Positions 2,504 to 41,860 of a DNA stretch of 64,000 nucleotides are shown here, piece by piece. Within the stretch, counting starts at the first letter, position 1. Every line of letters begins with the position of its first letter. The stretch is from Christensenellaceae bacterium (GTDB lineage Bacteria; Bacillota; Clostridia; Christensenellales; SZUA-584). A program made the position numbers and the translations under genes. Location of the stretch: positions 12,964 through 76,963 of the forward strand of contig CAXXTQ010000002.1 in the NCBI GenBank assembly GCA_963665005.2, read 5' to 3'. Under the pieces are notes generated by a model, which saw only the letters and a program-made list of their open reading frames with translations, ran no database searches and was not told the DNA's origin.

Positions 2504-2637
2504 TAAATCAGTTCCAAATCTCACTTAAATTATATATCTGTCGTATTTTTAAACAATGACCTGGTTTTAATAATAAGAGGTCTATTATAAGGAATACAGC
2601 ATTTTTCATGTGTTGTTATTTTCAAGAGAGGCAAATT

Positions 2638-4242: not shown

Positions 4243-4253
4243 TGGAGATTCTT

Positions 4254-6017
4254 ATGCAAAAAAACAAAAAAAAATCTTCACTAAATAACATATCCACAGA
4301 CAAACAACATTTTCGAAAAACCCTTTTTAGGACATTTGCCTTAATAATAACTATTATATTGGTATCAGTTATTACTTATGGCTGTATTTATACAATACAT
4401 ATATCGAACATAAAGAAAAACGAGGAGTATTCATTTGCAACATCGTCTGTTTTATCTCTGCTTAATAAATGCTCGATAATAATAAGCGACCTTCAAATAA
4501 CAAACCTCTCTATTTCCAACGCATATACTTCCAATGAAAAAATCGCCTCTTCTTTATTGAATGAATCAGAATATTCAACCTACATTTATTCTGAAAGAAC
4601 TAACAAGTTGGAGCCGATATCATTATCAACTGTTATATCTTCAAATATGACATCAATACTTGAAGATATTAACTACTGTTTGCAAAACATAACTTCTACT
4701 TCATATGCACGGTTTGATGACGACCTTCATTATGCATATTATATTAATCAACTTGAAGATCAAGAAAATCTGTATATGGTGGTTATTGATGAAAATATAA
4801 TTGAAATTAATAACCTGCTCTCCTCCTCTATATTCGAGGGGTCAAGTTTGTTTATTAATGGTCTTGGCAACAATGTTCTTTATTCGCATAATATTGAAGA
4901 GAAAGATATATCGCGTTGGGAAACAGTCTATCGCAGAGCCGCTTTCGATTCAGCAAGTTCGGTGTATAGCAGACAACTAATCGAATCAAACGATGATTTG
5001 CTTTTTCATTATCCAATGGGCTTATTAGGATATACTTTTGGCGGTTCGCTTTTAATATCAAGCGTATATTCTTCTTTTATATATGAAATACTGCCGTTGT
5101 TCATTCTTACAATCATAATAATAGTTATTTCTGTTTATACAATAATAAAATTCAAAAGATCTATCTATATTCCTATTGTTGAAATAGAAAAGGGAATTAA
5201 CGGAATTACAAACAAGGAAATGAATCTTGAGATCGCGTTAGATGAATCCAACGAGTTCTTCCCTATGTCAACACAAATAAATAGAATAATCAGGGGCCTA
5301 AGAGAAATCCTCAATCGTGAATATAATGAAAAAATAATGCGCAAACAGGCGCAGATTAGTGCTCTGCAAAGTCAACTTAATCCGCATTTTTTATACAATA
5401 CCTTTGATTCTATGCGTGGGCAGGCATTGGAAAAAGGTGCTACAGAAATAGCAAACATATTGAAATCTATGTCAAGCTTATTTAAATACAGTATTAAACA
5501 CAAACCAAAAACAGTCACTCTATTCGACGAACTGAATAATGTTGACAATTATTTATATATACAACAATACCGATTCAATAATAAATTCACCGTAAAAAAA
5601 CAAATTGATAACGATGAGCACGGTCAAATATTATCGTATAGCATCCCTAAGCTCACGTTGCAGCCTATTGTTGAAAACTCATTGATTCATGGTATTGAAC
5701 CAACGCCAAAAAACGGTCTTCTGTCTATACGTATATTCACAACAAAACATAATCTTATAATAGAAATTGAAGATAACGGTAAAGGTATTCCTCCCGAAAA
5801 ACTTCGAGAACTTAATGAAAATTTATATCATGGTGTAGACCTTTTCGACATAAAAGAACAAGATAATGCTCATATAGGAATAGGAATGTTTAATGTTAAT
5901 GAACTTATTAAACTATTGTACGGTAATAAATATGGACTGAAAATCTATAGTACGCAAAATATTGGCACTACAGTTCAGATTATATTGCCCTTAATTCCAA
6001 CCATTTCAGAAAAATGA
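4254..6017 (+). CDS. Sensor histidine kinase, LytS/YesM type (PF06580-like H-box plus HATPase), HK1
   Basis: Two TM segments flank a roughly 250-aa extracytoplasmic region. H-box LNPHFLYNTFDSMRG, N-box QPIVENSLIHG, G-boxes EDNGKGIP and GIGMFNV. Start set to ATG 4254 (GGAG 6 nt upstream), immediately after the RR1 stop. Confidence 0.9.
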   Translation: MQKNKKKSSLNNISTDKQHFRKTLFRTFALIITIILVSVITYGCIYTIHISNIKKNEEYSFATSSVLSLLNKCSIIISDLQITNLSISNAYTSNEKIASSLLNESEYSTYIYSERTNKLEPISLSTVISSNMTSILEDINYCLQNITSTSYARFDDDLHYAYYINQLEDQENLYMVVIDENIIEINNLLSSSIFEGSSLFINGLGNNVLYSHNIEEKDISRWETVYRRAAFDSASSVYSRQLIESNDDLLFHYPMGLLGYTFGGSLLISSVYSSFIYEILPLFILTIIIIVISVYTIIKFKRSIYIPIVEIEKGINGITNKEMNLEIALDESNEFFPMSTQINRIIRGLREILNREYNEKIMRKQAQISALQSQLNPHFLYNTFDSMRGQALEKGATEIANILKSMSSLFKYSIKHKPKTVTLFDELNNVDNYLYIQQYRFNNKFTVKKQIDNDEHGQILSYSIPKLTLQPIVENSLIHGIEPTPKNGLLSIRIFTTKHNLIIEIEDNGKGIPPEKLRELNENLYHGVDLFDIKEQDNAHIGIGMFNVNELIKLLYGNKYGLKIYSTQNIGTTVQIILPLIPTISEK

Positions 6018-27343: not shown

Positions 27344-28879
27344 TTAGCTCTCCCCCATATCCTGCAGCCTCTCAAAGAAACCATGAAGCTCTACCATATA
27401 CTTAGAGTAAAGCTCGATATGCTTAGCATATTTCTCTTTCATTTCCGGCTTTGGATCATAAGCCTTCTCTTCTTTGACAAACCGTTTCGCCGTCTCTTTT
27501 ATATCCTTGAACACGCCTATCGCATTGCCCGCTAGTATCGCCGCTCCCCACATAGCAACATCCTCGCGGTTCAGCGTCTTGTACCTCTTCCCCTGTGCGT
27601 CAGCGCACATCTGTGTCCAGACAGGCGATTTCGCACCGCCGCCTATTATCTTTATGTTATCAATATTGTACTCAGGATAAAGCCTCTCGATGCTTCTTAA
27701 GCATAATGTAAAATCGTAGGTAAAGCTTTCGAGCAACGCTCGGTAAAAATGTTCTTTCTTATGGCTCCAGTCATGCCCCATCCACAATCCTCGCAAAGCT
27801 CCGTCAAGCGGCATCGAGCTCCCGCCTAAAAGCCCCAGCGCCATAAGCCCGTCGCACCCTATCGGCAACGCATCTACCTTCTTCTCTATCTCGGCAAACA
27901 TCTCTTTTGTAGAAACGCCTTCTTGTCTTACAAAAGTATTCATGAACCAGTCAAGCGTTATTCCCGAACCGGCAACGAAGTGTACCGCGTAAAACTCACC
28001 GGGTACAGCCGATGGAACGACATCAAGCCGCCTCTCCTTTAGATCCGGCCTGTATTGCTCCACACACGTACTGATCATACCATACGAAGACGCTTCAAAA
28101 ATCGTCTCTCCGGGCGTCACAATAGCGGCCCCTAGCGCACCAGCAGCTTTATCGCCCGCCCCGGAAACAAGCGGAACGCCTTCCTTCAACCCCATTACAT
28201 CAGCCATTTTCCCGGAAAGACGGCCGCATATGTAGTTTGACCTCACTATTTTTGGCAGATACTTTTTTTCAAGTCCTATGGCGTCACATATCTTGTCAGA
28301 CCATTGGTCGTTTTGTACATCCGCAAGTCCCGTCCATTCTGTATACGACCTGTCTATTACCGCTTCTTCTATCGGCACATTCCCAAGCCTGCCGATAACA
28401 TATCCGCTAATCATCAGATACTTGGCGATTTTTTTGCTTTCGTCGGGAAACTCATTTTTGAACCATTCATATTTTGGAGCCATCTGAGGAAAATTAGTAC
28501 CCGCAATCCCTAGGAAGTCATCCTTGAGTTCCCCCATCTGCCGCTCCGCATACGGCATATACCGGCTGTCAAGCGAGCAAGACCAAGTTGTTATATCATT
28601 CCAGTCCTTGTCTACCCCCATGAATCCGGACATCTGCCCGGTAAAAGCGATAGCCTCTATGTTTTTAGCACGGTCTCCAAGCGCTTGCGATATCTTTTTT
28701 ACGCATTCAACTACCGATTCAAAAAGCTCCTCGCCTTTCTGTATAAACACTCCCGGGCTTGGCCGGTAATCTTTTACAGGCTCATTTGCAATCGCCACAC
28801 AATTACTTGACGTATCATATACTCCCGCCTTTATGAAGCTCGTCCCAAGGTCAACCGCCAGCAGTAATACTTCTTGCAT
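27344..28879 (-). CDS. FGGY-family carbohydrate kinase (xylulokinase-like)
   Basis: 511 aa. N-terminal LAVDLGTSFIKAG and C-terminal GGGAKSPVW motifs. Confidence 0.85.
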   Translation of the reverse strand: MQEVLLLAVDLGTSFIKAGVYDTSSNCVAIANEPVKDYRPSPGVFIQKGEELFESVVECVKKISQALGDRAKNIEAIAFTGQMSGFMGVDKDWNDITTWSCSLDSRYMPYAERQMGELKDDFLGIAGTNFPQMAPKYEWFKNEFPDESKKIAKYLMISGYVIGRLGNVPIEEAVIDRSYTEWTGLADVQNDQWSDKICDAIGLEKKYLPKIVRSNYICGRLSGKMADVMGLKEGVPLVSGAGDKAAGALGAAIVTPGETIFEASSYGMISTCVEQYRPDLKERRLDVVPSAVPGEFYAVHFVAGSGITLDWFMNTFVRQEGVSTKEMFAEIEKKVDALPIGCDGLMALGLLGGSSMPLDGALRGLWMGHDWSHKKEHFYRALLESFTYDFTLCLRSIERLYPEYNIDNIKIIGGGAKSPVWTQMCADAQGKRYKTLNREDVAMWGAAILAGNAIGVFKDIKETAKRFVKEEKAYDPKPEMKEKYAKHIELYSKYMVELHGFFERLQDMGES

Positions 28880-29034
28880 TTTCCCTTTTCCTCCTCAATA
28901 ATCTCTCTGTTAAAACAATTTGAGAGCAAAAGACAATCTTATTGCAGCTTGTCAAATGCCCTCAAATCACCCCTTCACTCTACTAAAAATCAGAGGTATT
29001 AGCATCTATATATTTTTTGTTCGCACCTTTTTAC

Positions 29035-29808
29035 TCATACTCCCGTATCAGTCTTTTCCTGATTCGGCTGTCCGTTCCAAGCCGACAAGCCTCCGTCCAC
29101 GGGAATGTTCACTCCGCATAGATGTGTAGCCTGATCGGACGCGAGATATACGATCACGTTTGCGCACCACTCCGGCTCGCACAACGCCCTTGCGGGCATA
29201 TTCTTGCGGAAACTCTCCAAAACCGCTCTAGATGCGCCCGTTAAAAACATTGGCGTCTTGACCGCCGAAGGCGATATTATGTTAACACGCACGCCCTGCA
29301 TTGAGTAATCCATGGCTACTGCCCTCGACATCGCTATAACGGCGCCTTTTGTCGCGCAGTAAAGCGACATGTTATAATCTCCGCCCATACCAGATACTGA
29401 TGCAACATTAACTATTGCGCCCTTCTTCTTGGCGAGCATCTGGGGCCCGAACGCCTTCATGGTATGGAATGTACCGCGTACATTTACATCAAACTGGAAA
29501 TCATAGTCCTCTTCCGGCGCATCCTCAATCTGCCCAACTCGGAACACACCCGCACAGTTTGCCAACACATCCGCTCCGCCTGCATCGTTAACCATCTTTG
29601 CAAGAGCCTCTACCTGTTCCCATTTGCCTACATCCGCAGCCTTACAGAAAACATTACCCGGATAATCCTTTTCGAACTCGCCGCATACGCTCTGAAGCTG
29701 ATCCGCTTTCCAATCCGTCATAAAAACTTTATCACCAAGCTTCAAGAAAGCTTCTACCGTTGACTTGCCAACTCCTGATGCAGCCCCTGTAACTACTACA
29801 TTTCTCAT
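29035..29808 (-). CDS. Short-chain dehydrogenase/reductase
   Basis: TGAASGVGKS cofactor motif and YCATKGAV catalytic YxxxK. Confidence 0.9.
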   Translation of the reverse strand: MRNVVVTGAASGVGKSTVEAFLKLGDKVFMTDWKADQLQSVCGEFEKDYPGNVFCKAADVGKWEQVEALAKMVNDAGGADVLANCAGVFRVGQIEDAPEEDYDFQFDVNVRGTFHTMKAFGPQMLAKKKGAIVNVASVSGMGGDYNMSLYCATKGAVIAMSRAVAMDYSMQGVRVNIISPSAVKTPMFLTGASRAVLESFRKNMPARALCEPEWCANVIVYLASDQATHLCGVNIPVDGGLSAWNGQPNQEKTDTGV

Positions 29809-29820
29809 TTTATTACCTCC

Positions 29821-30219
29821 TTAAAGCGCCTGGCAGAGTTCTATGTGCTCGTTATCCGGCCCACGGAAAAACACCCACTTGGTGCCATTCGGGAACATAT
29901 CCGCACAGAACATCTGATCTTCCGTCTCAAACTTAATTCCTTTTGCCTCCAGCTCTTTACGGATTTCTTCTATATCATCCACCGCGTAAGCAACATGATC
30001 TGTCATGCCATCTCCCGGATTGGAACCGATCTTCCTCTGCACCAATTCCAAACATACGCTCCCCTTCTTTACAAATGCACACGTAAACGTATTCCCGTCT
30101 GCATCAAAAGAACATTGCTCTATGCACTCAAGTCCTAATATATCATTATAAAACTTCTTAGATTTCTCCACATCGTCCACAAATATACCGATGTGCCCTA
30201 ATCCAGTTACTTGTGCCAT
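29821..30219 (-). CDS. VOC/glyoxalase-family protein
   Basis: 132 aa with GLGHIGIFVDD and HVAYAV metal-ligand contexts. Confidence 0.75.
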   Translation of the reverse strand: MAQVTGLGHIGIFVDDVEKSKKFYNDILGLECIEQCSFDADGNTFTCAFVKKGSVCLELVQRKIGSNPGDGMTDHVAYAVDDIEEIRKELEAKGIKFETEDQMFCADMFPNGTKWVFFRGPDNEHIELCQAL

Positions 30220-30230
30220 ATCTTTTCTCC

Positions 30231-31247
30231 TTAATTCTTAATCAACACTTTTATACAATTCGAAGAATTATTCATCACGAATTCAAATGCTTCTTTTACT
30301 TTATCTAATGGGAATTCCTGTGTTAACAACAAATCTAAATTTATTTTCTTTTTTTCAACCATTTTAGCCGCTTCTCTAAAATCTTCCCATGTATATTCAA
30401 GTGCACCCCGAATCGCTATCTCTCTATCTTCTACCCGGAACATATCCACCTTCGGAGTCATTCCATAAACCCCCATTGCGATAACTTCTCCACCACGATC
30501 TGTATGTTTTACACATGTTGAGAGGCTCTTTTCGTTTCCAACGCACTCAAACGTGTATCTGGTATAATTCTTTCCTGTCTCTTTAACCAATGTTTCTTCA
30601 ACAGACTCTTTTAAAATATTTATGGGTATTAATCCCAGCTCTTCTGCTATCTTTAATCTGCTATCTATAAGGTCGGAAATAAAAACTTTTTTTGCGCCCT
30701 TGTTTTTTGCAGAAACCGCTGTCAAAAGGCCGATTGTTCCCGCTCCTGATACCAACACATTTTCACTTCTAAGCTCTTTAATCATATTCGCACCGTGGAC
30801 ACCAACTGCCAGCGGTTCAATCATCGCAGCATGACGCAAATCAGTGTTATCATCTAATACAATTGCATTATCAGCATCAACAATAAAATAATCAGCCATC
30901 CCTCCCATATAGAACGTCTGTTCAGGACATATTGCCACTAAACCTTTTTTACAGGTCCAGCATTGCCCGCAACTTCTTACCGGTTGTACTGTAACTTTTT
31001 TGCCGATTTCTAAACCTTTCACACCAGAACCTATGTCGTCTACGATTCCTGAAAACTCATGCCCCAATTCAACCGGATATTTACCTTCCATCAGCGGATG
31101 CTCGCCTTTGAATATATGAATATCCGAACCACATATCCCGCAATAAGCCACTTTAATTCTGACTTGTCCCGATCCGGCCTTAGGCATTTCCATTTCTCTA
31201 ATATTCAAATTTTTTATATCTTCACAATACACTTGTTTCATATTCAT
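30231..31247 (-). CDS. Zinc-dependent polyol/alcohol dehydrogenase (sorbitol dehydrogenase-like MDR)
   Basis: CGICGSD, GHEFSG, structural-Zn Cys cluster CGQCWTCKKG, and GAGTIG Rossmann motif. Confidence 0.85.
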   Translation of the reverse strand: MNMKQVYCEDIKNLNIREMEMPKAGSGQVRIKVAYCGICGSDIHIFKGEHPLMEGKYPVELGHEFSGIVDDIGSGVKGLEIGKKVTVQPVRSCGQCWTCKKGLVAICPEQTFYMGGMADYFIVDADNAIVLDDNTDLRHAAMIEPLAVGVHGANMIKELRSENVLVSGAGTIGLLTAVSAKNKGAKKVFISDLIDSRLKIAEELGLIPINILKESVEETLVKETGKNYTRYTFECVGNEKSLSTCVKHTDRGGEVIAMGVYGMTPKVDMFRVEDREIAIRGALEYTWEDFREAAKMVEKKKINLDLLLTQEFPLDKVKEAFEFVMNNSSNCIKVLIKN

Positions 31248-31272
31248 TTATTCTCCATATTTTTCAATTTAT

Positions 31273-32118
31273 CTATACAAGCTTTTTCTCTGCCTCTTCA
31301 AGCACCTTGAGCCCGTCTATCCAATACTTATCCGTTTGGAAACGAGAACCGTCACATCTTTCCATATAATCGAAAAAGAACGCAACGGGCGGCAGCAATT
31401 CAAGCGCAAGATATCCATCATATCCGATATCTTTTAGCGTTTGCAATATTTTTACGAAATCATGTGACCCCGTTCCCGGAGCCTCTCTTCCGCTGTCCGA
31501 AAGATGAATATGCACAAGATAATCTTTTTGATCGATAAGCGCCTGATACATATCCTTTTCTTCAAATTGCATATGGAAAAAGTCCCCGTGCACCCCTATG
31601 TTAGGCATGTCTACTGCTTTTACCCACCTAACCGCTTCTGCAAGCGTATTAATAAGATGATTGTCGTATCTATTCCAAGCTTCAAGGCAAAGTGTGACAT
31701 CATGCTTTTGAGCATATTCCGTAGAGATACGCATACTTTCAACACCATACTTAAACTCGTCCTCAGGATCCGCAAGCGGTACCGGTTTTAAAAATTCGCC
31801 GGGATATACGATAGCCATGTGGCAGTCCTGCTCAGAAGCAAAATCTATTGTTTTTTTCATATAATCGATTGATTTTTTACGAACTCTTGTTATTGGGCTG
31901 GAGAGGCAGGTTCCTTCTAGAAACACGCTGCACATCGAACCCATCTTCAATCCTTCGCCTTCAAGGACTTCTTTTATCTCTTTGGATTTTTCATAGTAAT
32001 CATTGAATCCGGGTATTTCTACATATTTAAACCCGCATCTGGCTGCCCTTTTGAAAGATTTAGCTATATCCTCCACTGGGCGGTTTATCATTGAATTGTA
32101 TTCATATTTGAATTGCAT
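31273..32118 (-). CDS. Xylose-isomerase-like TIM-barrel protein (ketose 3-epimerase-like)
   Basis: Metal-ligand contexts LEAWNRYD, VHGDFFHM and LALELLP resemble the tagatose/psicose 3-epimerase family. Confidence 0.65.
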   Translation of the reverse strand: MQFKYEYNSMINRPVEDIAKSFKRAARCGFKYVEIPGFNDYYEKSKEIKEVLEGEGLKMGSMCSVFLEGTCLSSPITRVRKKSIDYMKKTIDFASEQDCHMAIVYPGEFLKPVPLADPEDEFKYGVESMRISTEYAQKHDVTLCLEAWNRYDNHLINTLAEAVRWVKAVDMPNIGVHGDFFHMQFEEKDMYQALIDQKDYLVHIHLSDSGREAPGTGSHDFVKILQTLKDIGYDGYLALELLPPVAFFFDYMERCDGSRFQTDKYWIDGLKVLEEAEKKLV

Positions 32119-32195: not shown

Positions 32196-33152
32196 CTATT
32201 TTTCTTTAGCCATACGTAATTTCTGTAAACAATCAAAGCTTACCGCCAACAACAAAACAACACCCTGTACAACAATTTGCACATACTCGCTTACATTTGC
32301 CAGAGCCATACCATTTGCAAGCACGCCCATTATAAACACACCAATCAAGCAACCAAACACTGAGGCCGATCCACCTGAAATACTTGTTCCTCCCAGAACA
32401 CATGCTATAATAACATCGAACTCAAACCCTCCTCCTGTATTCGGCGATCCTGTGTTGATCCTTGAAAGGGTCACTATACCTGCTATACATGCAAATACAC
32501 TGCTCAACACATATACGCTCGTCTTCATGACGTCAACATTTATACCAGAAAGTTTTGCAGCTTCCTCGTTTCCTCCTATGGCAACATAATATCTGCCATA
32601 AGTCGTTTTATAAAGCAATAACCATGCCAATACAAAAGTAATCGCAAAGATAATTACAGGTATCGGGATATATGCCAAGTACCCTTGTCCAATTACTTTA
32701 AATTCTGTAGTAAAACCATATATGGGTAACCCGCCGCATATAAGGTAGGCTGCACCTTGAAGTATTTTCATAAAAGCAAGCGTCGCAATAAAGGGCGGTA
32801 TCTTTACCTTCGTAATAAACAAGCCAGTAATCAAGCCCGCTATAATGGCCATGACAATGCATATTAGTATTGCCAGGTACATATTCATACCCATATTAAC
32901 CATCATGTAGGCGCATATGATATTTGTAAATGTAACTTGTGAGCCTACTGATAAATCTATACCTCCCACTAACAATACAAACATCATACCTGCAGCGGCA
33001 ATCCCGACCATTGATACTTGTCTTGCAATATTTAACGTATTGTTAATTGAAAAGAAATTATTTGCAGTAAATGAAAAGAATATAACAAGAGCAATTAACA
33101 CAAATACGATTGCATACTTCCCTAAGAATTTCGCCTTTCCTTCTTTATACAT
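32196..33152 (-). CDS. CUT2 sugar ABC permease (RbsC-like)
   Basis: 318 aa, about 9-10 TM, typical RbsC/branched-chain permease pattern (GGIDLSVGS). Confidence 0.9.
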   Translation of the reverse strand: MYKEGKAKFLGKYAIVFVLIALVIFFSFTANNFFSINNTLNIARQVSMVGIAAAGMMFVLLVGGIDLSVGSQVTFTNIICAYMMVNMGMNMYLAILICIVMAIIAGLITGLFITKVKIPPFIATLAFMKILQGAAYLICGGLPIYGFTTEFKVIGQGYLAYIPIPVIIFAITFVLAWLLLYKTTYGRYYVAIGGNEEAAKLSGINVDVMKTSVYVLSSVFACIAGIVTLSRINTGSPNTGGGFEFDVIIACVLGGTSISGGSASVFGCLIGVFIMGVLANGMALANVSEYVQIVVQGVVLLLAVSFDCLQKLRMAKEK

Positions 33153-33171: not shown

Positions 33172-34665
33172 TCAACTTACCTTTGATGCATAGTGCATTA
33201 TTTTTTCTTGAGAAAACTCTTCTCTTTTTAACTGGGCTCGTATTTTCCGTTCGCACAAAACAAGTATTCGATCAGACATTCCCATTAACTCAGGCATCTC
33301 CGACGAAATCATAATTATTGTTTTACCCTGTTTAACCATCTCATTTATGAGTATGTATATTTCATATTTTGCCCCAACGTCTATACCTCTGGTCGGCTCA
33401 TCCATTATAATTAGATCGGGCTGTGCCGCAAGCCATTTTGCAACAACAACCTTTTGCTGGTTGCCCCCGCTCAGATTTTTCACAAGCTGTTGTATAGACG
33501 GTGCTTTTATTGTAAGTGCATTTTTATATTTATCAATAATTTTTCTTTCTTTACTTCTATTGATCCAGGACAAAAAGGATATCTTACTTAACATAGCAAG
33601 CGTAATATTCTGGGCAATTGACATATGTGCTAATATACCATGCTCTTTACGGTTTTCCGGCACCAACACGATTCCGTGAGCAATCGCATCTTTGGGAGAT
33701 TTAACATGTATTTCCTTCCCCTTCAATTTCAACTTTCCAGATTTTATCTTTGCAGTGCCGAATATTAATTGCGCCATCTCCGTACGCCCAGCACCTACAA
33801 GGCCGCCCAAGCCCAGTATTTCTCCTCGATATAGCTTCATATTTAAGTTTTCAAATCCATTACCTGATACCCCTTCCATTTCCAGCAGTACTTCATCGGT
33901 AATCTGGGGCTCCTCTTTAGGAAATATGTTTTTTATTTCACGTCCTACCATCATTGTAATAAGCGTATCTCTTGTTATCTCGTTTGTATCCATAGTCGTA
34001 ATTAGCTTACCATCCCTCATAACAGAAACTCTGTCAGATACCTCAAATATTTCTTCTAATCGATGTGAGATATATATAATACTGACTCCGGAGGCTTTCA
34101 ATGTTCTTATCAATTTGAATAACGTCTCCACTTCTGCATCTGTCAATGGTGCAGTGGGCTCATCCATTATCAACACTTTTATATCCGTTATTAATACTTT
34201 ACCGATTTCAACTAGCTGTTGATATCCAACGGAAAGATTTTTTATTTGATCGTTTATATCTATCTTTATATCTAACTGATCAAACACCTGCAGGGCACGC
34301 TTTTTCATTTCTTTTTTCTTTAAAAATTTCCCAACCTTTATCTCTCGTCCCAAGAACAGATTTTCCCACACGGTGAGTTCATTTACCAGATTAAATTCCT
34401 GATAGATAACACCAATACCTAATTCTTTCGAGCTATGTGGGTTAAAACCTTTATATTCTTCGCCTTCAATTACTATCGTACCGGAGCTGGGTTTATGTGC
34501 GCCTGCTGCAGTTTTTATCAATGTTGATTTGCCTGCGCCATTCTCACCAACAAGCGCATGCACCTCACCCTTACGAAGTGAAAAGCTCACATCATCTATT
34601 GCCAAAACACCCGGAAACGTTTTAGTAATATTACGAAATTCAAAAAAAGTCTTTTTATTTCCCAC
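33172..34665 (-). CDS. CUT2 sugar ABC ATP-binding protein (RbsA/MglA-like, tandem NBD, intact motifs)
   Basis: GENGAGKST, LSVGYQQ, LIMDEPT, GLVGAGRTE, LSGGNQQK and IIMDEPTRGID. GTG start with GAGGAA RBS. Confidence 0.9.
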   Translation of the reverse strand: MGNKKTFFEFRNITKTFPGVLAIDDVSFSLRKGEVHALVGENGAGKSTLIKTAAGAHKPSSGTIVIEGEEYKGFNPHSSKELGIGVIYQEFNLVNELTVWENLFLGREIKVGKFLKKKEMKKRALQVFDQLDIKIDINDQIKNLSVGYQQLVEIGKVLITDIKVLIMDEPTAPLTDAEVETLFKLIRTLKASGVSIIYISHRLEEIFEVSDRVSVMRDGKLITTMDTNEITRDTLITMMVGREIKNIFPKEEPQITDEVLLEMEGVSGNGFENLNMKLYRGEILGLGGLVGAGRTEMAQLIFGTAKIKSGKLKLKGKEIHVKSPKDAIAHGIVLVPENRKEHGILAHMSIAQNITLAMLSKISFLSWINRSKERKIIDKYKNALTIKAPSIQQLVKNLSGGNQQKVVVAKWLAAQPDLIIMDEPTRGIDVGAKYEIYILINEMVKQGKTIIMISSEMPELMGMSDRILVLCERKIRAQLKREEFSQEKIMHYASKVS

Positions 34666-34750: not shown

Positions 34751-35866
34751 TTATTCTAAATAATCTCCAAAATACGCCAGGGCTTCGTAATCAACCGTTA
34801 CTTCAATATCATAATTGAGCTGTTCCATCATTTCAGGTAAGTTATCATAAGTAATTGGAAGTACAGGCATATACAAAACACTTTCATAATCTTCGCCGCG
34901 TACAACCTTCATTGTTTCATCTATCATAGCTTCCGCGTGAAGAGCTCCCCCTCCAAGATTTGCACAGCCACGTATATAACCGCCCATGGCCATTAACGTA
35001 ACCGCTTCCAAGCTACCGTCGATTGTGAAAATACCAAAGTCATCATCAGCATTGGCCGCTACAATCGCCTCGTTTGCGCCAACACCGCCGCCATCACCAA
35101 AAGATAGAATGATGTCCATATCGGGGTAAGCCTGGAGCATGTTTTCAGCTCCATCAAATCCTTCAGTTGCTACCAAAGCGTCTTGCTCTATAACGACCTC
35201 CGCGTTAGGAGCCAGTTCTGCAAGAGCATCTTTCATTCCTTGAACACGCGTTGCGGCTATATCAGGAAATACGCTACTCCCGAATACTCCAACTTCAATT
35301 GTTTCCTTATTTTTTAGTGTTTCATGCTCATTGATCCATGCCGCTGCCATAGTACCACACATCACACCCGCATCATGATCAGGCATAGCATATTTAATAT
35401 CATCGACTAGAGATTCGGTCGTATAAGCACAAAGCGCAATGCCGTTGTCCTTTGCCTTCTGAAGCACGTCTTCACCTGCAGTTGTTGGCGTAATGTATAT
35501 AATGCCGTCATAACCAGCCGTAATGAAATTTTCCATTTGCTCAACAAATTTGCTGGGATCATCATCATAAGAAACGGATGTTACGTTGGCATTATACTTT
35601 TCCTTTGCATATACTTCTGCATGATTAACAAGATCAACCCAAACACTGTTAGTAAGGCCGCTGAATACGATGCCGAGCTGGTACTCCTTAGCAGTCTCGT
35701 CAACGCTATCATCAGGCTCTTCGCCACCATTTTCCGCAGTCTCTGTATCTACCGCTTCATCGGTAGACTGAACTTCGTTAGGTGCACCTGTACAAGCAGC
35801 AAATACAAACGCTAATAATAAAACTAACAGTACAAACGCTATGCTCCTTTTCATCTTCTTCACCAT
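34751..35866 (-). CDS. Sugar ABC substrate-binding lipoprotein (PBP1-like)
   Basis: Signal peptide plus lipobox (VFAAC), an acidic linker, then a binding-protein fold sequence. AGGAGG RBS. Confidence 0.85.
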   Translation of the reverse strand: MVKKMKRSIAFVLLVLLLAFVFAACTGAPNEVQSTDEAVDTETAENGGEEPDDSVDETAKEYQLGIVFSGLTNSVWVDLVNHAEVYAKEKYNANVTSVSYDDDPSKFVEQMENFITAGYDGIIYITPTTAGEDVLQKAKDNGIALCAYTTESLVDDIKYAMPDHDAGVMCGTMAAAWINEHETLKNKETIEVGVFGSSVFPDIAATRVQGMKDALAELAPNAEVVIEQDALVATEGFDGAENMLQAYPDMDIILSFGDGGGVGANEAIVAANADDDFGIFTIDGSLEAVTLMAMGGYIRGCANLGGGALHAEAMIDETMKVVRGEDYESVLYMPVLPITYDNLPEMMEQLNYDIEVTVDYEALAYFGDYLE

Positions 35867-36080: not shown

Positions 36081-36111
36081 AAAATAGGGAAAGGGGGATA
36101 AAATTAAATTT

Positions 36112-37725
36112 ATGATTACATCAAAGAAATTGTCAACAATAATCATAGATGACGAACCTAATGTCTGTGACTTAATAAAGCATTTAGGGAATTGGCAGGA
36201 GTTAAATATCGAAGTCATCGGAGAAGCAAATGGTGGTCAACAGGGTCTTGCCTTAATTCGAAAATACAAACCAGATATCGTAATAATTGATATGAGGCTT
36301 CCGGGGATTAGCGGAATTGATATTATTAAAAAATGTTTTACAGAACATATTTCGTCAAAATTTCTAGTTGTTAGTGGCTATAAAAAATTCGAATATGCTC
36401 AACAGGCTCTCACATTAAACGTTTCAGGGTATCTCCTCAAACCTATTAACAAATATGACCTTAATTCTGCCCTTAAAAAAATAATTACAGAGATTCAAAA
36501 TTCTTATGTTGCCAAGAATCATTTGCAAACTCTCTCCTCAACAATCGATATAAAACAAGGATATTTATGGGAGCAGCTATTTTTTGCATTGACCGAACAA
36601 AAAAGGAATAACATTGATATAAATAAACTTAGAAAAACTCTTGGAATTTCCAACGATAATATAAGCTTTGTATTTTTTATCGTTAAAATAGATGCTTTAA
36701 TTGATACATTAGATATAAATTCATTATTAAAACAGATTAATGCTTTATTAAAAAAATACTTTAATGAACAAGCTCCCTTTCCCTTACATATTTTCAAAAC
36801 CGAAAATCGCCTTTTTAGCATTTTATATTATGAATCGGCCAGTCCCTACAACGCCACGTCGATATTTAATAATATCTATCAACTAGTAAATAAAAAAATA
36901 CTTCCAGCCAAAGCAAAAGTAACTATAGGAATTAGTTCGAAAAAAAATAGTTTTTCTGATTTGCCGTCAGCATATCGCGAAGCCACAGCCTGCATAGAAT
37001 TTCGTCGTTATAGTACACAAAATATAATTTTGTATACCCCGGAAATCCCGTTGGTCCCAAAAGAATTTGCTGTTCCTCAAAAATATGAAGACAAAATCAT
37101 AAGAGCTATAGAAATCCAAAGTAAAGAAAAGGCTTTACAAATCTTTAATGATTTTTGGTCAGAATTTTTGCCCACTTTTAAGCCTCGCGGCAGTTTATTC
37201 ATTACAATTAGCGCATTTGTGGAAACATGGTGTTCAATACTTAATAGCTATTCTAAACATACGGATTTTTTTCAAAAAGAAAAATATATGCTTATTACAT
37301 CAATAGATAATGAAATGAACCTCAATAAAATTAAGGATTATGTTTCCATAATGATCAAATCTTCTATTAAACAATATGCTGACTGCCATAAATCATGGGG
37401 GGACCAATATATACGAACAGCTAAAAAATATATTGCAGAAAATTTGGGAAATGGTTTAACATTGGATGAAGTTGCTGAAGCAGTATCTTTAAATCCAATA
37501 TATTTTAGTTCATTATTTAAAACAAAAACCGAAATGAATTTCTCCAGTTATATCCAAAAGCAACGTATAGATATGGCTAAGCAACTACTTCAAAAATCTA
37601 AGTCTCCCATCAAAGTCATTAGTTCTTCCGTCGGTTATCAAGATATCAATTATTTTACAAAACTGTTTAAAAGGTATGTCGGAATTACTCCATCTGCATA
37701 TCGGCGTATGCATTTTCCAATTTAA
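36112..37725 (+). CDS. Response regulator, CheY receiver plus AraC/XylS HTH (YesN-like), RR2
   Basis: IIIDDEP, DIVIIDMRLP and LLKP. C-terminal AraC HTH (LNPIYFSSLFKTKTEMNF, GYQDINYFTKLFKRYVGITPSAYRR). Confidence 0.9.
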   Translation: MITSKKLSTIIIDDEPNVCDLIKHLGNWQELNIEVIGEANGGQQGLALIRKYKPDIVIIDMRLPGISGIDIIKKCFTEHISSKFLVVSGYKKFEYAQQALTLNVSGYLLKPINKYDLNSALKKIITEIQNSYVAKNHLQTLSSTIDIKQGYLWEQLFFALTEQKRNNIDINKLRKTLGISNDNISFVFFIVKIDALIDTLDINSLLKQINALLKKYFNEQAPFPLHIFKTENRLFSILYYESASPYNATSIFNNIYQLVNKKILPAKAKVTIGISSKKNSFSDLPSAYREATACIEFRRYSTQNIILYTPEIPLVPKEFAVPQKYEDKIIRAIEIQSKEKALQIFNDFWSEFLPTFKPRGSLFITISAFVETWCSILNSYSKHTDFFQKEKYMLITSIDNEMNLNKIKDYVSIMIKSSIKQYADCHKSWGDQYIRTAKKYIAENLGNGLTLDEVAEAVSLNPIYFSSLFKTKTEMNFSSYIQKQRIDMAKQLLQKSKSPIKVISSSVGYQDINYFTKLFKRYVGITPSAYRRMHFPI

Positions 37726-37732
37726 ATATGGT

Positions 37733-38776
37733 ATGAATATGAAATTATTAAAAAATAAAAATAATAAAATAAATTTTTTTTCTCATGCTGCTTTTGTACT
37801 ATATTGCCTATTATTTTCTGCGCAGATTTTCTCGCTTTATTTTATTTATCTTGCATATAGAGTATCCTTATTAAGTATTTTGTATTTCTTTTTTATAATT
37901 CTTTGTATGCTATTTTTTATTTTCATTATAATTCGGCCAATATATAAGAACTACAAACGCGGCAAAATTGCTGGCATTGTTGAAAACAATCCTTTTAAAA
38001 TGCTAAATAGCCTTGCTTCAGGTGCGTGGGTGAAAATCATTGAAGAAAACAATAATTTAGTTAAAAAAGACTACTCTAATAAAATACTTCTTAACCAAAT
38101 GAAATTTCAAACATTGCAAAATCAAATAAATCCTCATTTTTTATATAATTCCCTTGATTCTGTCCGTGGACTGGCAATAAAGGCAAAGGACTATTCTACA
38201 GCAGAAATGGTAGAAGCTCTCGCCTCATTTTTCAGATATAACATTGGTAATGAAAATGATATCGTTGAATTGCATCAGGAAATACAAAGTATACGCAACT
38301 ATTTTATTATCCAGAGATATCGTTTCTCAAATCGTTTTAAACTTGAGTGCCATTTTGATCAGAAAGACTCCTCAATTATTCAATATATGATTCCAAAACT
38401 AATAATACAACCGTTAGTAGAAAACGCAATATTTCATGGACTCGAACCCAAAGAAGGCAAAGGTTTCGTCGCCATCAATGTCCGTAAAACTACACACAGA
38501 CTGTATATATCAGTTGCCGACAATGGCGTAGGGATGAGCGACGCAGAATTACACTATCTCAATAAAAAATTGCTTTCAATTAAAAAAACTTCGCAAGGCT
38601 TATCTATTAGCGAAGATATGAAACATAAAAACATTGCTATACCTAATATAAATCAACGCATAAAAAGTATTTTTGGAGAAGATTTTGGTTTGCATATCAG
38701 CAGTACGCTCAATCTTGGTACAGAAATCGAACTCTCTCTCCCATTTCCATCACAGATAAAGGATTACAGCCAGTGA
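37733..38776 (+). CDS. Short LytS/YesM-type histidine kinase without an extracytoplasmic domain, HK2
   Basis: Two adjacent TM helices, a short linker, H-box INPHFLYNSLDSVRG, N-box QPLVENAIFHG and G-box ADNGVGM. The start is ambiguous (ATG 37733 or 37739; the ORF-track start 37676 overlaps RR2). Confidence 0.85.
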   Translation: MNMKLLKNKNNKINFFSHAAFVLYCLLFSAQIFSLYFIYLAYRVSLLSILYFFFIILCMLFFIFIIIRPIYKNYKRGKIAGIVENNPFKMLNSLASGAWVKIIEENNNLVKKDYSNKILLNQMKFQTLQNQINPHFLYNSLDSVRGLAIKAKDYSTAEMVEALASFFRYNIGNENDIVELHQEIQSIRNYFIIQRYRFSNRFKLECHFDQKDSSIIQYMIPKLIIQPLVENAIFHGLEPKEGKGFVAINVRKTTHRLYISVADNGVGMSDAELHYLNKKLLSIKKTSQGLSISEDMKHKNIAIPNINQRIKSIFGEDFGLHISSTLNLGTEIELSLPFPSQIKDYSQ

Positions 38777-40182
38777 TAGACGAATTGCTTAGAATTGAAG
38801 ATTTATACGGCTATTATATTGAGAAAACAATACTTGATCATGTTGCTTTTAGTCTTTTTAATGGCGAAATTTTGTGCCTATTTGGATTGAATAATTCCGG
38901 GAAAAGTACTATTATCCGCATCTTTTCGGGCAAAATACACGGCGTCTGGGAAAAAAGAATATATTATAAAGGTAACCCTATAACAATTGATTCTCCAACC
39001 GAATCAAAAAAACTTGGAATTGCATGTATACAATCTAACTCTTCGCTACTGGATACTTTTACGGTATCAGAAAGCCTTTTTATAATGCCTGAAATTTCTC
39101 CAAAACGCACCTTTATCTCATATAAAAAAATTAATAAAAAGACTGCTCAAATCCTAAAAAAATTTGATCTCGATATAAACCCTACCGACATAGTATGCAA
39201 TCTTAGTCAAGCCAACCGCTTCCTTCTTGAAATTGTTAAAAATATAGTAGATGAAAAAGAAATATTCTTTATTGACTGTCTTCATGTATTCAGGCAAAAA
39301 ACTGATTTTGATAAACTTAGAAAAATTATTATTAGCCTTAGAGAAACTGGTAAAACCATTTTATTTACCAGTAATAATTACCACCAAAACCTTTCCTTTG
39401 CTGATCGTATTTATATATTACGTGATGGTATGATCGTAAAGGAAATGACTGCTTCAAATTTTACTCCAAAGCTCTTAAAGAAATATGCAGCTAAACAGTT
39501 TTATATTCCAACATCGAATAGCAAAGTAGAAAAAGATTCATCTATACTGCTAGACATTAAAAACCTCAATGTTAACAAAAAATCTCATGCGCTTTCTTTT
39601 AAAATCTTTAAAGGTGCAATAACTGCTGTTGCATCACAAAATAAAAATTTGCTGCATGAATTAGCTAACTATTTTATTGACCCATATCCACAGAATATTT
39701 TTGTGAAAATTAATGGTATGAACGTTACACACAAGAAATTCTGCAAATGGCTCAAACGCAATTCCAGCACTATATTAAACCTATCTAAAAGCGTTTGTAG
39801 ATTTTATAACATGAGTGTTTTAGAAAACATTACTGTAAGTGCTAAACCTTCTTTCCCATTCCCTAGATTATGGATTAATAAAAAAGTCAAAAGCTTTATA
39901 GCTACTGACAATAAACATCTTATTGATGTTGTAGAACTACTAGATAAACAAGGAGGTGACTTTGTCGTCTACAATGCATTTCTTCTTATAAAACGACTTA
40001 TATACCGTAAGATACAATTTGTCGTATTCTACTGCCCCGAATTTGGACTTGATCCCTTAAGTATTACTTGGATCTACTCAGTAATTGAAGAACTCTGTAA
40101 AAAAGGTATTGGTGTATTGCTACTTACTGAGAATGGTAATGAGGCGTCCCCTTTTTGTTCCCATACTATTTGGATAGGCTAA
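38773..40182 (+). CDS. Degenerate tandem-NBD ABC ATPase homologue (Walker A kept in NBD1, catalytic residues lost), called P2 here
   Basis: 469 aa. GTG start forms a GTGA overlap with the HK2 stop. NBD1 has Walker A GLNNSGKST intact, but the signature is LSQANRF, Walker B is IFFIDCLH (catalytic Glu is Cys) and the H-loop is TSNNY. NBD2 has no Walker A, and the Walker B region is FYCPEFGLD. Confidence 0.85.
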   Translation: MIDELLRIEDLYGYYIEKTILDHVAFSLFNGEILCLFGLNNSGKSTIIRIFSGKIHGVWEKRIYYKGNPITIDSPTESKKLGIACIQSNSSLLDTFTVSESLFIMPEISPKRTFISYKKINKKTAQILKKFDLDINPTDIVCNLSQANRFLLEIVKNIVDEKEIFFIDCLHVFRQKTDFDKLRKIIISLRETGKTILFTSNNYHQNLSFADRIYILRDGMIVKEMTASNFTPKLLKKYAAKQFYIPTSNSKVEKDSSILLDIKNLNVNKKSHALSFKIFKGAITAVASQNKNLLHELANYFIDPYPQNIFVKINGMNVTHKKFCKWLKRNSSTILNLSKSVCRFYNMSVLENITVSAKPSFPFPRLWINKKVKSFIATDNKHLIDVVELLDKQGGDFVVYNAFLLIKRLIYRKIQFVVFYCPEFGLDPLSITWIYSVIEELCKKGIGVLLLTENGNEASPFCSHTIWIG

Positions 40183-40479
40183 TTCTATTGACCAGTTTTC
40201 AGGAAAAAGGTCGCAAAGTTCAAGAATACCCCCTGTCAGTGTCAAATAAATGGCCTATTGCCAAAACCTTTTTTTATGTCTAAAACAGATTAAATAATGC
40301 ATTGTTCTCATCTATTTGTACTGTGGGAAAGCCATCGCTCCTAAAAAATAAACGTCAATAATCAAAAGAAGTAATAAACCGCAAATACGTTATCCTCACA
40401 AATATTTAAAAACTGAAATGTGTCCAAACGTCCTTTTTTTAAAGTTCACAAATAAGCGAAAACTACGTAACCATCGTGG

Positions 40480-41835: not shown

Positions 41836-41860
41836 CATCGTGGTTTCCGGGGTTTTCTTG

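Follow-up and report, generated by a model that had tools for sequence, protein, structure and literature searches.

The window, that is, the whole 64,000-nucleotide stretch of Christensenellaceae DNA that was analysed, carries two loci at which two-component genes and a degenerate tandem ATPase gene lie beside a sugar ABC importer (Table 1). At the P2 locus, the genes for the response regulator RR2, the histidine kinase HK2 and the ATPase-like protein P2 follow one another on the forward strand, divergently from an operon that encodes a CUT2 importer and a set of catabolic enzymes, the last gene being that of an FGGY sugar kinase. The locus has a single binding-protein gene, and P2 is not needed for transport, since the adjoining complete importer has an intact ATPase of its own. 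The P2 gene starts with GTG, at a position aligned with the M-x-x-E-L-L-R N termini common to all its relatives. For its part, HK2 has two adjacent transmembrane (TM) helices and carries neither an extracellular domain nor a HAMP domain. The GC content of P2 is 0.32 versus 0.40 to 0.48 in the neighbouring genes, with equally low values in the genes of RR2 and HK2, and P2 is part of an island delimited by tRNA-Gln 3'-end repeats, beside an IS remnant. A promoter and terminator scan of positions 35700 to 40700 yielded nothing above the shuffled background. At the other locus, P1 is the first gene of an operon encoding a binding protein, an ATPase and a permease, divergent from the genes of RR1 and of the full-length kinase HK1.

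Table 1. Features of the P1 and P2 loci and of the P2 protein (positions are those of the window)
Feature	Position	Strand	Description	Basis
P1	967..2376	-	Fully degenerate tandem-NBD paralogue	ORF, Pfam, alignment
RR1 and HK1	2608..6017	+	RR1, 2608-4242; HK1, 4242-6017 (591 aa, extracellular domain present)	Pfam
Catabolic genes of the importer operon	27344..32118	-	TIM-barrel isomerase/epimerase, Zn-ADH, VOC protein, SDR, FGGY kinase	Pfam
Permease	32196..33152	-	RbsC-type (BPD_transp_2), candidate docking partner of P2	Pfam; docking inferred
Importer ATPase	33172..34665	-	Functional tandem ATPase, every motif intact	Pfam, alignment, NCBIfam
Binding protein	34751..35866	-	Sugar-binding lipoprotein of the CUT2 importer (divergent operon)	PF13407
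RR2	36112..37725	+	Response regulator, receiver plus AraC-type HTH (YesN-like)	Pfam
HK2	37733..38776	+	Sensor-less PF06580 (LytS/YesM-type) histidine kinase	Pfam, hydropathy, N-terminal sequences
HK2 stop/P2 start	38773..38776	+	GTGA overlap, translational coupling	Sequence
P2	38773..40182	+	Tandem-NBD pseudo-ABC-ATPase, 469 aa, DC family	ORF, Pfam, AF2, NCBIfam
P2 A-loop region	38806..38820	+	YGYYI, aromatic Tyr15	Column Tyr/Phe in 7/7 DC family members
P2 NBD1 Walker A	38884..38910	+	GLNNSGKST, residues 38-46 (canonical GENGAGKST)	Alignment
P2 NBD1 signature	39202..39222	+	Degenerate, LSQANRF (canonical LSVGYQQ)	Alignment
P2 NBD1 Walker B	39262..39279	+	IFFID, then Cys169 at the catalytic Glu position; residues 164-169 (canonical VLIMD-E)	Alignment
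P2 H-loop position	39364..39378	+	FTSNN, His to Asn (canonical YISHR)	Alignment
P2 NBD2 Walker A position	39625..39654	+	Lost, AVASQNKNLL (SQNKNLLHE vs canonical GLVGAGRTE)	Alignment
P2 NBD2 Walker B position	40027..40053	+	Walker B lost (FYC); Pro422 and D-loop Asp427 retained (PEFGLD)	Alignment

Motifs were called by aligning P2 with the functional CUT2 ATPase of the window and about 30 further paralogues from the genome. This alignment bore out what the sequence-only reading had described for the first nucleotide-binding domain (NBD1), namely an intact Walker A motif and a preserved Walker B aspartate, together with a cysteine at the position of the catalytic glutamate, the sequence LSQAN in place of the signature and an asparagine in place of the H-loop histidine. 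The loss of the second domain (NBD2), read from AVASQNKNLL and FYCPEFGLD, was likewise found, although the D-loop aspartate is kept there. A Walker A motif of the form G-x4-GK[ST] occurs in NBD1 and not in NBD2, and an hhhhD stretch followed by the catalytic glutamate occurs in neither half (IFFID-C in NBD1 and FVVFY-C in NBD2), the NBD2 Walker B position reading FVVFYCPEFGLD compared with the canonical LIIMDEPTRGID. The Q-loop glutamine is displaced and unconserved among relatives, and NBD2 has no counterpart of the signature, the H-loop histidine or the Q-loop glutamine. Both halves retain the [ST]VxEN motif of the helical subdomain. The loss of the NBD1 signature is milder than the earlier reading implied, as the signature of active CUT2 NBD1 domains is not LSGGQ either (LSVGYQQ here).

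P2 belongs to the ABC ATPase superfamily both by Pfam gathering score and by fold. The PF00005 match (52.9 bits, with a cutoff of 25) was a single stretch confined to NBD1, and the AF2 model (pLDDT, 84.3) had a tandem-NBD fold whose top Foldseek matches were OppD/DppD and the A2 component of MCR; it aligned over both halves with the tandem NBDs of OppD and DppD (TM score, ~0.6 to 0.65). The CUT2 tandem ATPases (RbsA, XylG, MglA, AraG, AlsA, and YtfR) share with P2 the two-NBD architecture and the length class and provide its best NCBIfam and Pfam matches, and the P2 gene adjoins those of an RbsB/RbsC-type binding protein and permease. P2 differs from them, however, in having no catalytic glutamate, H-loop, Q-loop or signatures, in keeping only the D-loop of NBD2, and in being encoded in a two-component operon and not in the operon of the transporter, which has its own intact ATPase. 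Its best NCBIfam score was 123.3 bits (NF010069; cutoff, 699), compared with 571 for the true ATPase of the locus, and it fell 5- to 7-fold below every curated CUT2 equivalog cutoff (XylG, RbsA, MglA, AraG, AlsA, GguA, and YtfR). As judged from its sequence, P2 is a pseudo-enzyme derived from a CUT2 sugar importer ATPase. That it would be unable to act as a normal hydrolase is supported, given that the catalytic glutamate, the Q-loop glutamine, the H-loop histidine, both signatures and the second Walker A motif are gone, so that neither hydrolysis nor ATP-driven closure would be expected.

An intact Walker A motif, a preserved Walker B aspartate, a replaced catalytic glutamate and a nonconsensus H-loop and partner signature constitute the hallmark of degenerate ABC sites (PMC7544095). 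The motif state of P2 NBD1 is like that of the degenerate sites of CFTR (site 1), TAP1, MRP1/ABCC, ABCB11, BmrCD, and TM287/288, and the hallmark of the CFTR site 1 type, with Walker A and the Walker B aspartate intact and the catalytic glutamate gone, is present in P2 and kept in 12 of 12 relatives. Degenerate ABC sites devoid of the catalytic glutamate bind ATP stably with little hydrolysis. Those sites pair with a second, catalytic site within a transporter, whereas P2 lacks a catalytic site and is not fused to a membrane domain. To our knowledge, a cysteine at the catalytic glutamate position is unusual, the known degenerate cases having Asp, Ser, Asn, or Met. As the partner signature of NBD2 is gone, the canonical ATP sandwich cannot form in P2; the affinity of the NBD1 site may be low, and there may possibly be no closed state.

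The closest known relatives of P2 are its paralogue P3 in the same genome (36% identity) and five metagenomic proteins, next to which stands a sister group of five proteins with the same layout. We defined the DC family as tandem-NBD proteins of 460 to 476 aa that keep the Walker A motif, show D-C at the Walker B position, and are encoded by a gene that overlaps the 3' end of a sensor-less PF06580 kinase gene downstream of an AraC-type response regulator gene, all of which are features of P2. The seven members (P2, P3, P0033, P0035, P0036, P0039, and P0041) form a clade with 100% support and, at identities of 24 to 36%, all have G-x4-GK[ST], hhhhD-C and an aromatic A-loop residue. Invariance across the 12 kinase-coupled relatives (7 DC plus 5 sister-group proteins) is limited to 12 of 469 columns, G38, G43, K44, and D168 among them; the chance probability of all four being invariant is ~2.5e-7. 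P422 and D427 of NBD2 are also invariant (12/12), and C169 is invariant in the seven DC members, with D, G, or N at its place in the sister group. Neither the catalytic glutamate nor the H-loop histidine occurs in any of the 12. All five sister-group proteins have G-x4-G-K and the Walker B aspartate, one of them with Ile instead of Ser/Thr after the lysine. The open reading frames of all relatives are intact (461 to 493 aa). The dN/dS ratio of a sister-group pseudo-ATPase pair was 0.24 (0.12 for its response regulator and 0.17 for its kinase), a value that comes from one pair with 95% identity, contig pairs with identical proteins having too few nucleotide differences; selection on P2 itself is read from the family, its closest relative being 36% identical.

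Two other lineages with the same fold, P1/P0185 and L011d, have no Walker A motif, so that the motif is not simply required for folding. The predicted ATP-binding pattern appears to be a conserved family trait and not a chance survival, and the retention of its residues looks selected. The suggestion that P2 may bind ATP without hydrolysing it was strengthened on both sides as a prediction, the hydrolytic residues being gone and the putative ATP-binding residues being kept in 7 of 7 DC members and, as a scaffold, in 5 of 5 sister-group proteins.

The DC family is small and apparently undescribed, accounting for some 7 clusters in 1.84 billion representatives. No further members were found in 60 relatives and in 400 genomes from the same order, in which 4 to 26 candidates were scored per genome (4 each in the 400). 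A word-indexed homologue search with P2 gave no relative above 24% identity, the family profile gave only P0036, and a search of genome and metagenome contigs with a profile from a three-sequence alignment recovered only canonical ATPases. A further kinase-coupled pseudo-ATPase, met through a canonical-ATPase match, is carried by L011 on the opposite strand. No kinase-NBD fusions were detected among the long matches of the representative search, which were ATPase-permease or isomerase-ATPase fusions.

The arrangement of P2 behind a kinase gene is that of the whole group. Gene context is known for 11 of the 12 proteins, and each is encoded directly after a short PF06580 kinase that has no extracellular domain. 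In the 13 DC and sister-group loci with context, a kinase of 314 to 369 aa is invariably encoded immediately upstream, with an AraC-type response regulator before it, and a complete sugar ABC importer lies alongside wherever the contig extends far enough. Besides P2, the kinase and pseudo-ATPase genes overlap by 4 nt at P3, L004-L008, and L011 and by 11 nt at L003, L016, and L017, and they are separated by 2 nt at L014, L015, and L037; at L003, the pseudo-ATPase gene also overlaps a permease gene. The partner kinases have one or two TM helices, with H-, N- and G-boxes invariant among 10 of them, and the identities of regulator, kinase and pseudo-ATPase co-vary across loci. This genome encodes five PF06580 kinases, four of them at CUT2 loci and each of these four with an extra ATPase paralogue, and the two that have no sensor domain are exactly those overlapped by P2 and P3. 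P0037, a near-intact relative, is kinase-coupled too.

Since a kinase devoid of a sensor domain must obtain its information from elsewhere, it is somewhat probable, in our view, that P2 binds ATP but does not hydrolyse it and serves HK2 as its input or adaptor subunit in the cytoplasm. Owing to the 4-nt gene overlap, P2 would be produced in fixed register with HK2, an intramembrane-type LytS/YesM kinase, and both are inherited jointly with the AraC-type regulator RR2 as a three-gene module beside the sugar importer and catabolic operon. P2 would hold ATP essentially without turnover and, as gene order suggests, would dock on the RbsC-type permease of the importer, like any NBD, or on the membrane-proximal region of HK2. 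P2 would relay to HK2 the state of the importer, be it transport or occupancy, and HK2 would then phosphorylate RR2, resulting in the induction of the divergent operon. The ATP on P2 would most likely be a structural or allosteric ligand, and it could make the signal dependent on the energy state. A structural ATP that stays bound throughout is no less likely than the nucleotide occupancy switch put forward in the sequence-only reading. The absence of a Walker A motif from L011d, a third kinase-coupled lineage, implies that ATP binding is not essential to the general design of kinase plus pseudo-ATPase.

In UhpC-UhpB, PstSCAB-PhoU-PhoR, and MalK-MalT, a signalling protein of the cytoplasm is informed of substrate or flux by a component of a transporter or by a paralogue of one, and PhoR, like HK2, has no periplasmic sensor. 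UhpC is an MFS membrane protein, and PstB and MalK are active ATPases; unlike the case of P2, we know of no dedicated pseudo-NBD encoded with a kinase among them. In the Bce module of Bacillus subtilis (BceRS-BceAB), a sensor-less kinase reads an ABC transporter (PMC10314905). As far as its genes indicate, the P2 module resembles it in the two-TM kinase without an extracellular sensor, as found in HK2, in the putative ABC-dependent input and in gene clustering, and the influence of nucleotide binding at the NBD on the Bce kinase is a further likeness (PMC10314905). However, BceA is an active ATPase whose hydrolysis is needed for signalling, whereas the P2 module has an apparently dead NBD (PMC10314905). 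BceB is of the MacB/FtsX type, with a large extracellular domain and antimicrobial peptides as substrate, and works with a HisKA_3/BceS-type kinase and an OmpR-type regulator; the P2 locus has the BPD_transp_2 permease of a sugar importer, a PF06580 kinase and an AraC-type regulator, and neither a BceB-type (FtsX/MacB) permease, an active BceA nor an OmpR-type regulator is found there.

The three-component sugar sensors of Clostridia, XylFII-LytS-YesN of C. beijerinckii and CuaD-CuaS/R of R. cellulolyticum (PMC8050422, PMC10384115), share with the P2 module the LytS/YesM-type PF06580 kinase, the AraC-type regulator, the adjacent sugar importer under their control, and an accessory protein that is a paralogue of a transporter component. 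At the P2 locus, a PF06580 kinase and a REC-AraC regulator indeed lie beside a sugar ABC operon. The accessory protein of those sensors is, however, an extracellular binding-protein paralogue acting on the extracellular domain of the kinase, whereas P2 is a predicted cytoplasmic ATPase paralogue, and the locus has neither such a kinase domain nor a dedicated binding-protein paralogue. The P1 locus, with its full-length kinase, is nearer to the XylFII layout than the P2 locus.

P2 might instead regulate the transporter and not the kinase, occupying the permease dimer in competition with the true ATPase and thus throttling or locking import, in which case co-transcription with the two-component genes would serve dosage only. 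We regard this as unlikely: the preserved NBD fold, the presence in both halves of [ST]VxEN, which lies near the permease-contact region of ABC NBDs, the overlap with the permease gene at L003 and the complete importer adjoining every time are in accordance with it, but it leaves unexplained the invariable sensor-less kinase partner and the kinase-specific start/stop overlap, and it leaves that kinase without a source of input. The two roles, transporter regulation and kinase input, are compatible with each other.

Less likely still, the P-loop may be kept for a reason other than ATP, either to bind another phosphorylated ligand (GTP, a sugar phosphate, or pyrophosphate) as a cytoplasmic signal or for purely structural purposes. 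The readers of the gamma-phosphate (Q-loop, H-loop, and partner signature) are gone, the invariant cysteine beside the Walker B aspartate has no known role, and the FGGY kinase that ends the operon would yield a sugar phosphate. Nevertheless, the A-loop aromatic residue, which would stack on adenine, is present in all seven DC members, and the Mg-coordinating Ser/Thr and the Walker B aspartate are retained, all that a site for Mg-ATP or Mg-ADP would be expected to have; a structural P-loop is made unlikely by the survival of the fold in lineages without Walker A.

It is very improbable that P2 is a slow ATPase, with Cys169 or a neighbour as the general base and hydrolysis as a signalling timer. 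The strict conservation of Cys169 in the DC family would fit such a protein, and the near-intact, kinase-coupled P0037 makes an active ATPase probable as the ancestral partner; but the catalytic glutamate, the H-loop histidine, the Q-loop glutamine and both signatures have been lost jointly, when each single loss of this kind cuts turnover by orders of magnitude, and the cysteine itself gives way to Asp, Gly, or Asn in the sister group. Least probable of all is that P2 is the functionless remnant of a transporter gene duplication, not yet deleted from a mobile island, for despite the AT richness of P2, its position between tRNA-Gln repeats next to an IS remnant and the lack of a known close orthologue, the reading frame is intact with the length and start of relatives at 24 to 36% identity, the three-gene synteny recurs in 13 loci of different organisms, functional residues are invariant, the sister-group dN/dS is 0.24 and the low GC content, being shared by the regulator and kinase genes, is no mark of decay; a pseudogene was rejected on these same grounds.

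P1 had been placed with P2 at different points on the same degeneration path. The loss of its NBD1 Walker A motif was confirmed (INTDNAKDA), and its Walker B position reads LIILEG. The P1 orthologue P0185 (58% identity) has identical synteny, and Walker A is lost in both; P2 likewise has conserved relatives of its own that share its motif state (P2/P3/P0033, 36%). The idea of P1 and P2 as recent paralogues, each caught at its own stage of a single decay, was rejected, given their 18% identity and their separate conserved families, and their different gene arrangements also count against a single path. What stands of the proposal is a split from the transport ATPases, with 96% support in the tree and all paralogues from two-component loci on one side, which makes possible a common older lineage of regulatory paralogues with graded motif loss. 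P1 and P2 are two stable end states and not snapshots of a single decay.

A search of the literature for a pseudo-ATPase or degenerate ABC protein working with a histidine kinase or YesM found nothing relevant. Tentatively, and with considerable doubt, the input role of P2 may be extended to an undescribed four-part class of sugar sensors in anaerobic Firmicutes, in which an ATP-loaded, non-hydrolysing pseudo-NBD would replace the motor on its cognate permease and pass the conformational change induced by binding protein and substrate directly to a sensor-less kinase, with the ATP/ADP state gating the signal by energy charge, along a graded lineage from P0037 through P2/P3 to P1/L011d. If so, partners that are active, only ATP binding, or nucleotide free would provide a natural dissection of the role of the NBD in signalling versus transport.

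In practical terms, DC-type proteins are now unnamed or liable to be annotated as "sugar ABC transporter ATP-binding protein," a label that is almost certainly mistaken. LytS/YesM-YesN systems control many sugar loci of gut and soil anaerobes, and a partner of the P2 type is a concrete candidate for the signal input of a kinase without a sensor domain. If confirmed, P2 would represent a new type of accessory protein for two-component signalling, and the transporter-as-sensor principle known from Bce, Pst/PhoR, and UhpC would reach sugar importers. It would also offer a natural system in which nucleotide binding by an ABC protein is split from hydrolysis, with four paralogues of differing degeneration (P4, P2, P3, and P1) in one genome.

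The motifs of P2, the pseudo-ABC-ATPase encoded beside the sugar importer, were read from an alignment to the intact CUT2 tandem ATPase of that importer (the true ATPase) and about 30 CUT2 ATPases encoded in this genome. The alignment bore out the claim of the sequence-only reading that NBD1 keeps an intact Walker A, with the catalytic Glu replaced by Cys and the signature and H-loop lost, and all the motif strings then given were found at the positions named. In NBD2, signature and H-loop are both gone. P2 has lost every hydrolytic residue and keeps the Mg-nucleotide-binding set.

ABC motifs of P2 and their canonical counterparts
Motif	P2	Canonical
NBD1 Walker A	GLNNSGKST (residues 38-46)	GENGAGKST
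NBD1 Walker B	IFFID-C (residues 164-169)	VLIMD-E
NBD1 signature	LSQANRF	LSVGYQQ
NBD1 H-loop	FTSNN	YISHR
NBD2 Walker A	SQNKNLLHE	GLVGAGRTE
NBD2 Walker B	FVVFYCPEFGLD	LIIMDEPTRGID

Features of the window discussed in the text
Feature	Position	Strand	Description
P1	967..2376	-	second degenerate paralogue
tRNA-Gln 3' end, 23 nt	26942-26964		direct copy
True ATPase	33172..34665	-	intact CUT2 tandem ATPase
RR2	36112-37725		receiver domain and AraC-type HTH
HK2	about 37733-38776		PF06580 His_kinase and HATPase_c domains
P2	38773..40182	+	GTG start; 469 aa
Small ORF	40567-40929	-	120 aa; within 40472-41843
tRNA-Gln 3' end, 23 nt	41861-41883		direct copy
tRNA-Gln 3' end, 23 nt	42137-42159		direct copy
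tRNA-Gln gene	42137-42210	-	

Pfam yielded a single ABC_tran match for P2 (residues 21-168, 52.9 bits) and two for the true ATPase (187.7 bits). The NCBIfam CUT2 equivalogs XylG, RbsA, AlsA, GguA, AraG, MglA and YtfR all matched P2 end to end, with scores (92-123 bits, against cut-offs of 689-850) that place it outside every curated ATPase equivalog; the true ATPase scored 487-571 bits. An AlphaFold2 model built from a 23-row alignment (mean pLDDT, 84.3; pTM, 0.66) showed two NBD-like halves, and the best full-length Foldseek matches were OppD and DppD of M. tuberculosis (fused tandem NBDs) and the A2 component of methyl-CoM reductase activation. These results identify P2 as a genuine tandem-NBD protein that descends from CUT2 ATPases.

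When 1.84 billion cluster representatives were scanned in full with HMMER, very few relatives emerged that were similar in size and matched over their full length in a single stretch: P3 (P0034; C1:332883-334289), a paralogue in the same genome with 36% identity, and five others, P0033 (36%) and P0035, P0036, P0039 and P0041 (24 to 28%). This family, provisionally named DC, is small; no P2 orthologue closer than 36% was found, and none of the database members carried a name. A check of the hits of P2 for fusions of an NBD to a kinase yielded none. The location of the module on a segment bracketed by tRNA-Gln copies (see below) may explain the missing orthologues in related genomes. The family forms a clade with 100% SH-aLRT support, and all seven proteins share G-x4-G-K-[ST], an aromatic residue at the A-loop position and a Walker B hhhhD followed by Cys; an H-loop His or a recognisable signature was present in none of the seven. 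Its sister group (98% support; P0046, P0080, P0095, P0107 and P0109, all of about 492 aa) keeps G-x4-GK and the Walker B Asp, has Asp, Gly or Asn at the Glu position, and lacks the H-loop His in all five proteins. Cys169 of P2 (window 39277-39279) is the same Cys that replaces the catalytic Glu in P3 and the other five relatives. Known degenerate ABC sites carry Asp, Ser or Asn at this position; an invariant thiol adjoining the gamma-phosphate position could serve redox or covalent chemistry.

Across 12 proteins of the DC family and its sister group, 12 of the 469 P2 columns were invariant (M1, E4, G38, G43, K44, G53, D168, G193, G219, N352, P422 and D427). Among them are two Walker A glycines (G38 and G43), the Walker A lysine K44 and the Walker B aspartate D168; the chance of all four landing in the invariant set is about 2.5e-7. 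P422 and D427 are part of the NBD2 D-loop, which in ABC dimers extends into the opposite ATP site. Walker A has been lost from two further lineages with this fold, L011d and the pair of P1 and P0185 (a 58% orthologue of P1), and their ORFs are still intact; therefore the P-loop sequence is not needed merely for folding. In the family of P2, its invariance suggests that ligand binding is under selection. Purifying selection was seen directly in the sister group, where the pair P0080 and P0265 (95% identical) gave a dN/dS of 0.24, from 28 synonymous differences and 24 non-synonymous ones, compared with 0.12 for the RR gene and 0.17 for the HK gene on their contigs.

P2 is the third gene of the unit RR2-HK2-P2. 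Its GTG shares 4 nt with the stop codon of the preceding gene (GTGA) and is preceded, about 10 nt upstream, by the Shine-Dalgarno-like AAGGA. HK2 has two TM helices back to back with essentially no external loop, lacks a HAMP domain, and places its H-box about 60 residues from the membrane. The divergent operon is complete, with a binding lipoprotein, the true ATPase and an RbsC-type permease, followed by genes for a TIM-barrel isomerase/epimerase, a Zn-ADH, a VOC protein, an SDR and an FGGY kinase. The three tRNA-Gln copies, an integrated-island signature, bracket a segment of roughly 15 kb that holds the entire sugar operon together with RR2-HK2-P2 and an IS-like remnant. The small ORF resembles a transposase fragment (no Pfam match at 1e-5). 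The GC content was 0.30 to 0.32 in both RR/HK/pseudo-ATPase regions (window 2001-6000 and 36001-40000) and 0.38 to 0.48 in the adjoining transporter and catabolic genes (genome, 0.415); the regulatory modules thus differ in composition from the operons presumably under their control.

The order AraC-type RR, PF06580 kinase of 314 to 369 aa and pseudo-ATPase was found at P3 and at every relative with a context-bearing contig, amounting to 13 loci: P2, P3, L003, L004, L005, L006, L007 and L008 in the DC family, and L014, L015, L016, L017 and L037 in the sister group. The stop codon of the kinase gene and the start of the pseudo-ATPase gene overlap by 4 nt in 8 of the 13 (P2 and P3 included) and by 11 nt in 3, and lie 2 nt apart in the other 2; wherever the contig was long enough, a complete CUT2 importer lay beside the triad. 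Identity to the P2 locus co-varied among loci (RR, 28 to 34%; HK, 43 to 53%; pseudo-ATPase, 24 to 36%), as expected for a co-inherited module. P2 and a kinase devoid of an input domain are produced in fixed register, and the module with that kinase is conserved. All catalytic boxes are retained in the short kinases, which would therefore be live beside a dead ATPase paralogue. In the locus of one metagenomic relative (L003:2110-4541), the pseudo-ATPase gene shares 11 nt with the kinase gene upstream of it and 4 nt with a BPD_transp_2 permease gene downstream of it, which hints that the pseudo-ATPase pairs with a permease. A triad of RR, short HK and tandem pseudo-ATPase with a 4-nt overlap also occurs in a Hadza-gut Eubacteriales MAG (L011:1323-5432, minus strand), whose pseudo-ATPase, L011d, has wholly lost Walker A and Walker B (VYDNFISADS and YVILLNPN).

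Four of the five PF06580 kinases of this genome lie at CUT2 loci, each with an extra ATPase paralogue (P1 to P4); the fifth is a full-length kinase at a CUT1 locus, without a paralogue of this kind beside it. Exactly two kinases lack a sensor domain, those overlapped by P2 and P3. The P3 module (C1:330158-334289; L002/L018) is a second complete copy, made up of a 556-aa RR, a 342-aa sensor-less HK and the 468-aa P3 with its ATGA overlap; a further CUT2 importer operon is transcribed divergently from it. The motifs of P3 are GLNNSGKTT at Walker A and IIVLD-C at Walker B. P4 (C1:535918-537390, 490 aa; locus C1:532147-537390) is found upstream of genes for an RR and a 439-aa PF06580 HK, across an 850-bp gap without a clear ORF. 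It has lost the NBD2 Walker A and keeps nearly intact NBD1 motifs (GMNSAGKTS, LLLIDE and FITHN), so that a graded series is present within one genome: P4, then P2 and P3, then P1.

The loss of Walker A in P1 was confirmed, INTDNAKDA standing in its place, with LIILEG and YITTQ at further NBD1 motifs and NBD2 likewise degenerate. The sequence-only reading had placed P1 and P2 on one degeneration path. As successive time points of one decay they were ruled out by their 18% identity, by their different partners and by P0185, which shares with P1 its motif losses and its synteny (a P1-like gene together with those for SBP, true ATPase and permease and, on the divergent side, an RR and a kinase that has an extracellular domain and is 586 aa long in the P0185 locus). 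Identity between the two organisms is 58% for P1, 61% for the HK, 66% for the RR and 76% for the true ATPase, so the constraint on P1 is close to that on its kinase. P1 and P2 are thus two separately conserved states. In a looser sense a common path has some support, since a 63-sequence tree separated all the paralogues from two-component loci (DC family, sister group, P1/P0185, P4, P0037, P0038 and L011d) from 44 transport ATPases by a split with 96% support. Many branches in this tree are long, making attraction possible; P0037 and P0038 are short-branched, which makes an old lineage of regulatory ATPase paralogues with repeated, graded motif loss plausible. P0037 (L034:1-1786), whose gene overlaps the end of a PF06580 kinase gene, is canonical save for Gln at the NBD2 catalytic Glu. 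P0038 (L035:3001-9027) has lost only the H-loop and is encoded first in a transporter operon, before the true ATPase; an RR, a 384-aa HK and a second binding protein are encoded divergently from this operon.

Since an intact ATPase is present, P2 is dispensable for transport. Site 1 of CFTR is established to behave as other degenerate sites without the catalytic Glu do. Such sites bind ATP with negligible turnover (PMC7544095), and P2 would probably do the same, acting as a cytoplasmic input or adaptor of the kinase. For a kinase without an external domain, the importer would be the simplest route for a sugar signal, and P2, as an NBD, could dock on the coupling helices of the permease; alternatively, it may dock directly on the juxtamembrane linker of the kinase. 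An ATP-driven closed state of P2 seems unlikely, because NBD2 has no signature to clamp ATP; more realistically, the nucleotide would be structural and stay bound permanently, or P2 would depend on the ATP/ADP ratio. L011d is kinase-coupled and lacks Walker A, so the general design can work without nucleotide.

Full-text literature searches found no description of a protein like P2. The concept resembles that of Bce systems, in which the kinase is signalled through an ABC component (BceS reading BceAB; PMC10314905), although their permease type, active ATPase and OmpR-type regulator are not those of the P2 module. XylFII-LytS-YesN sensors differ in having an extracellular kinase domain and a dedicated binding protein. 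The P2 module would work most like a hybrid of clostridial sugar sensors, with which it has the kinase and regulator family in common, and Bce/PhoR systems, with which it would share the dependence on an ABC component, here a dedicated pseudo-enzyme.
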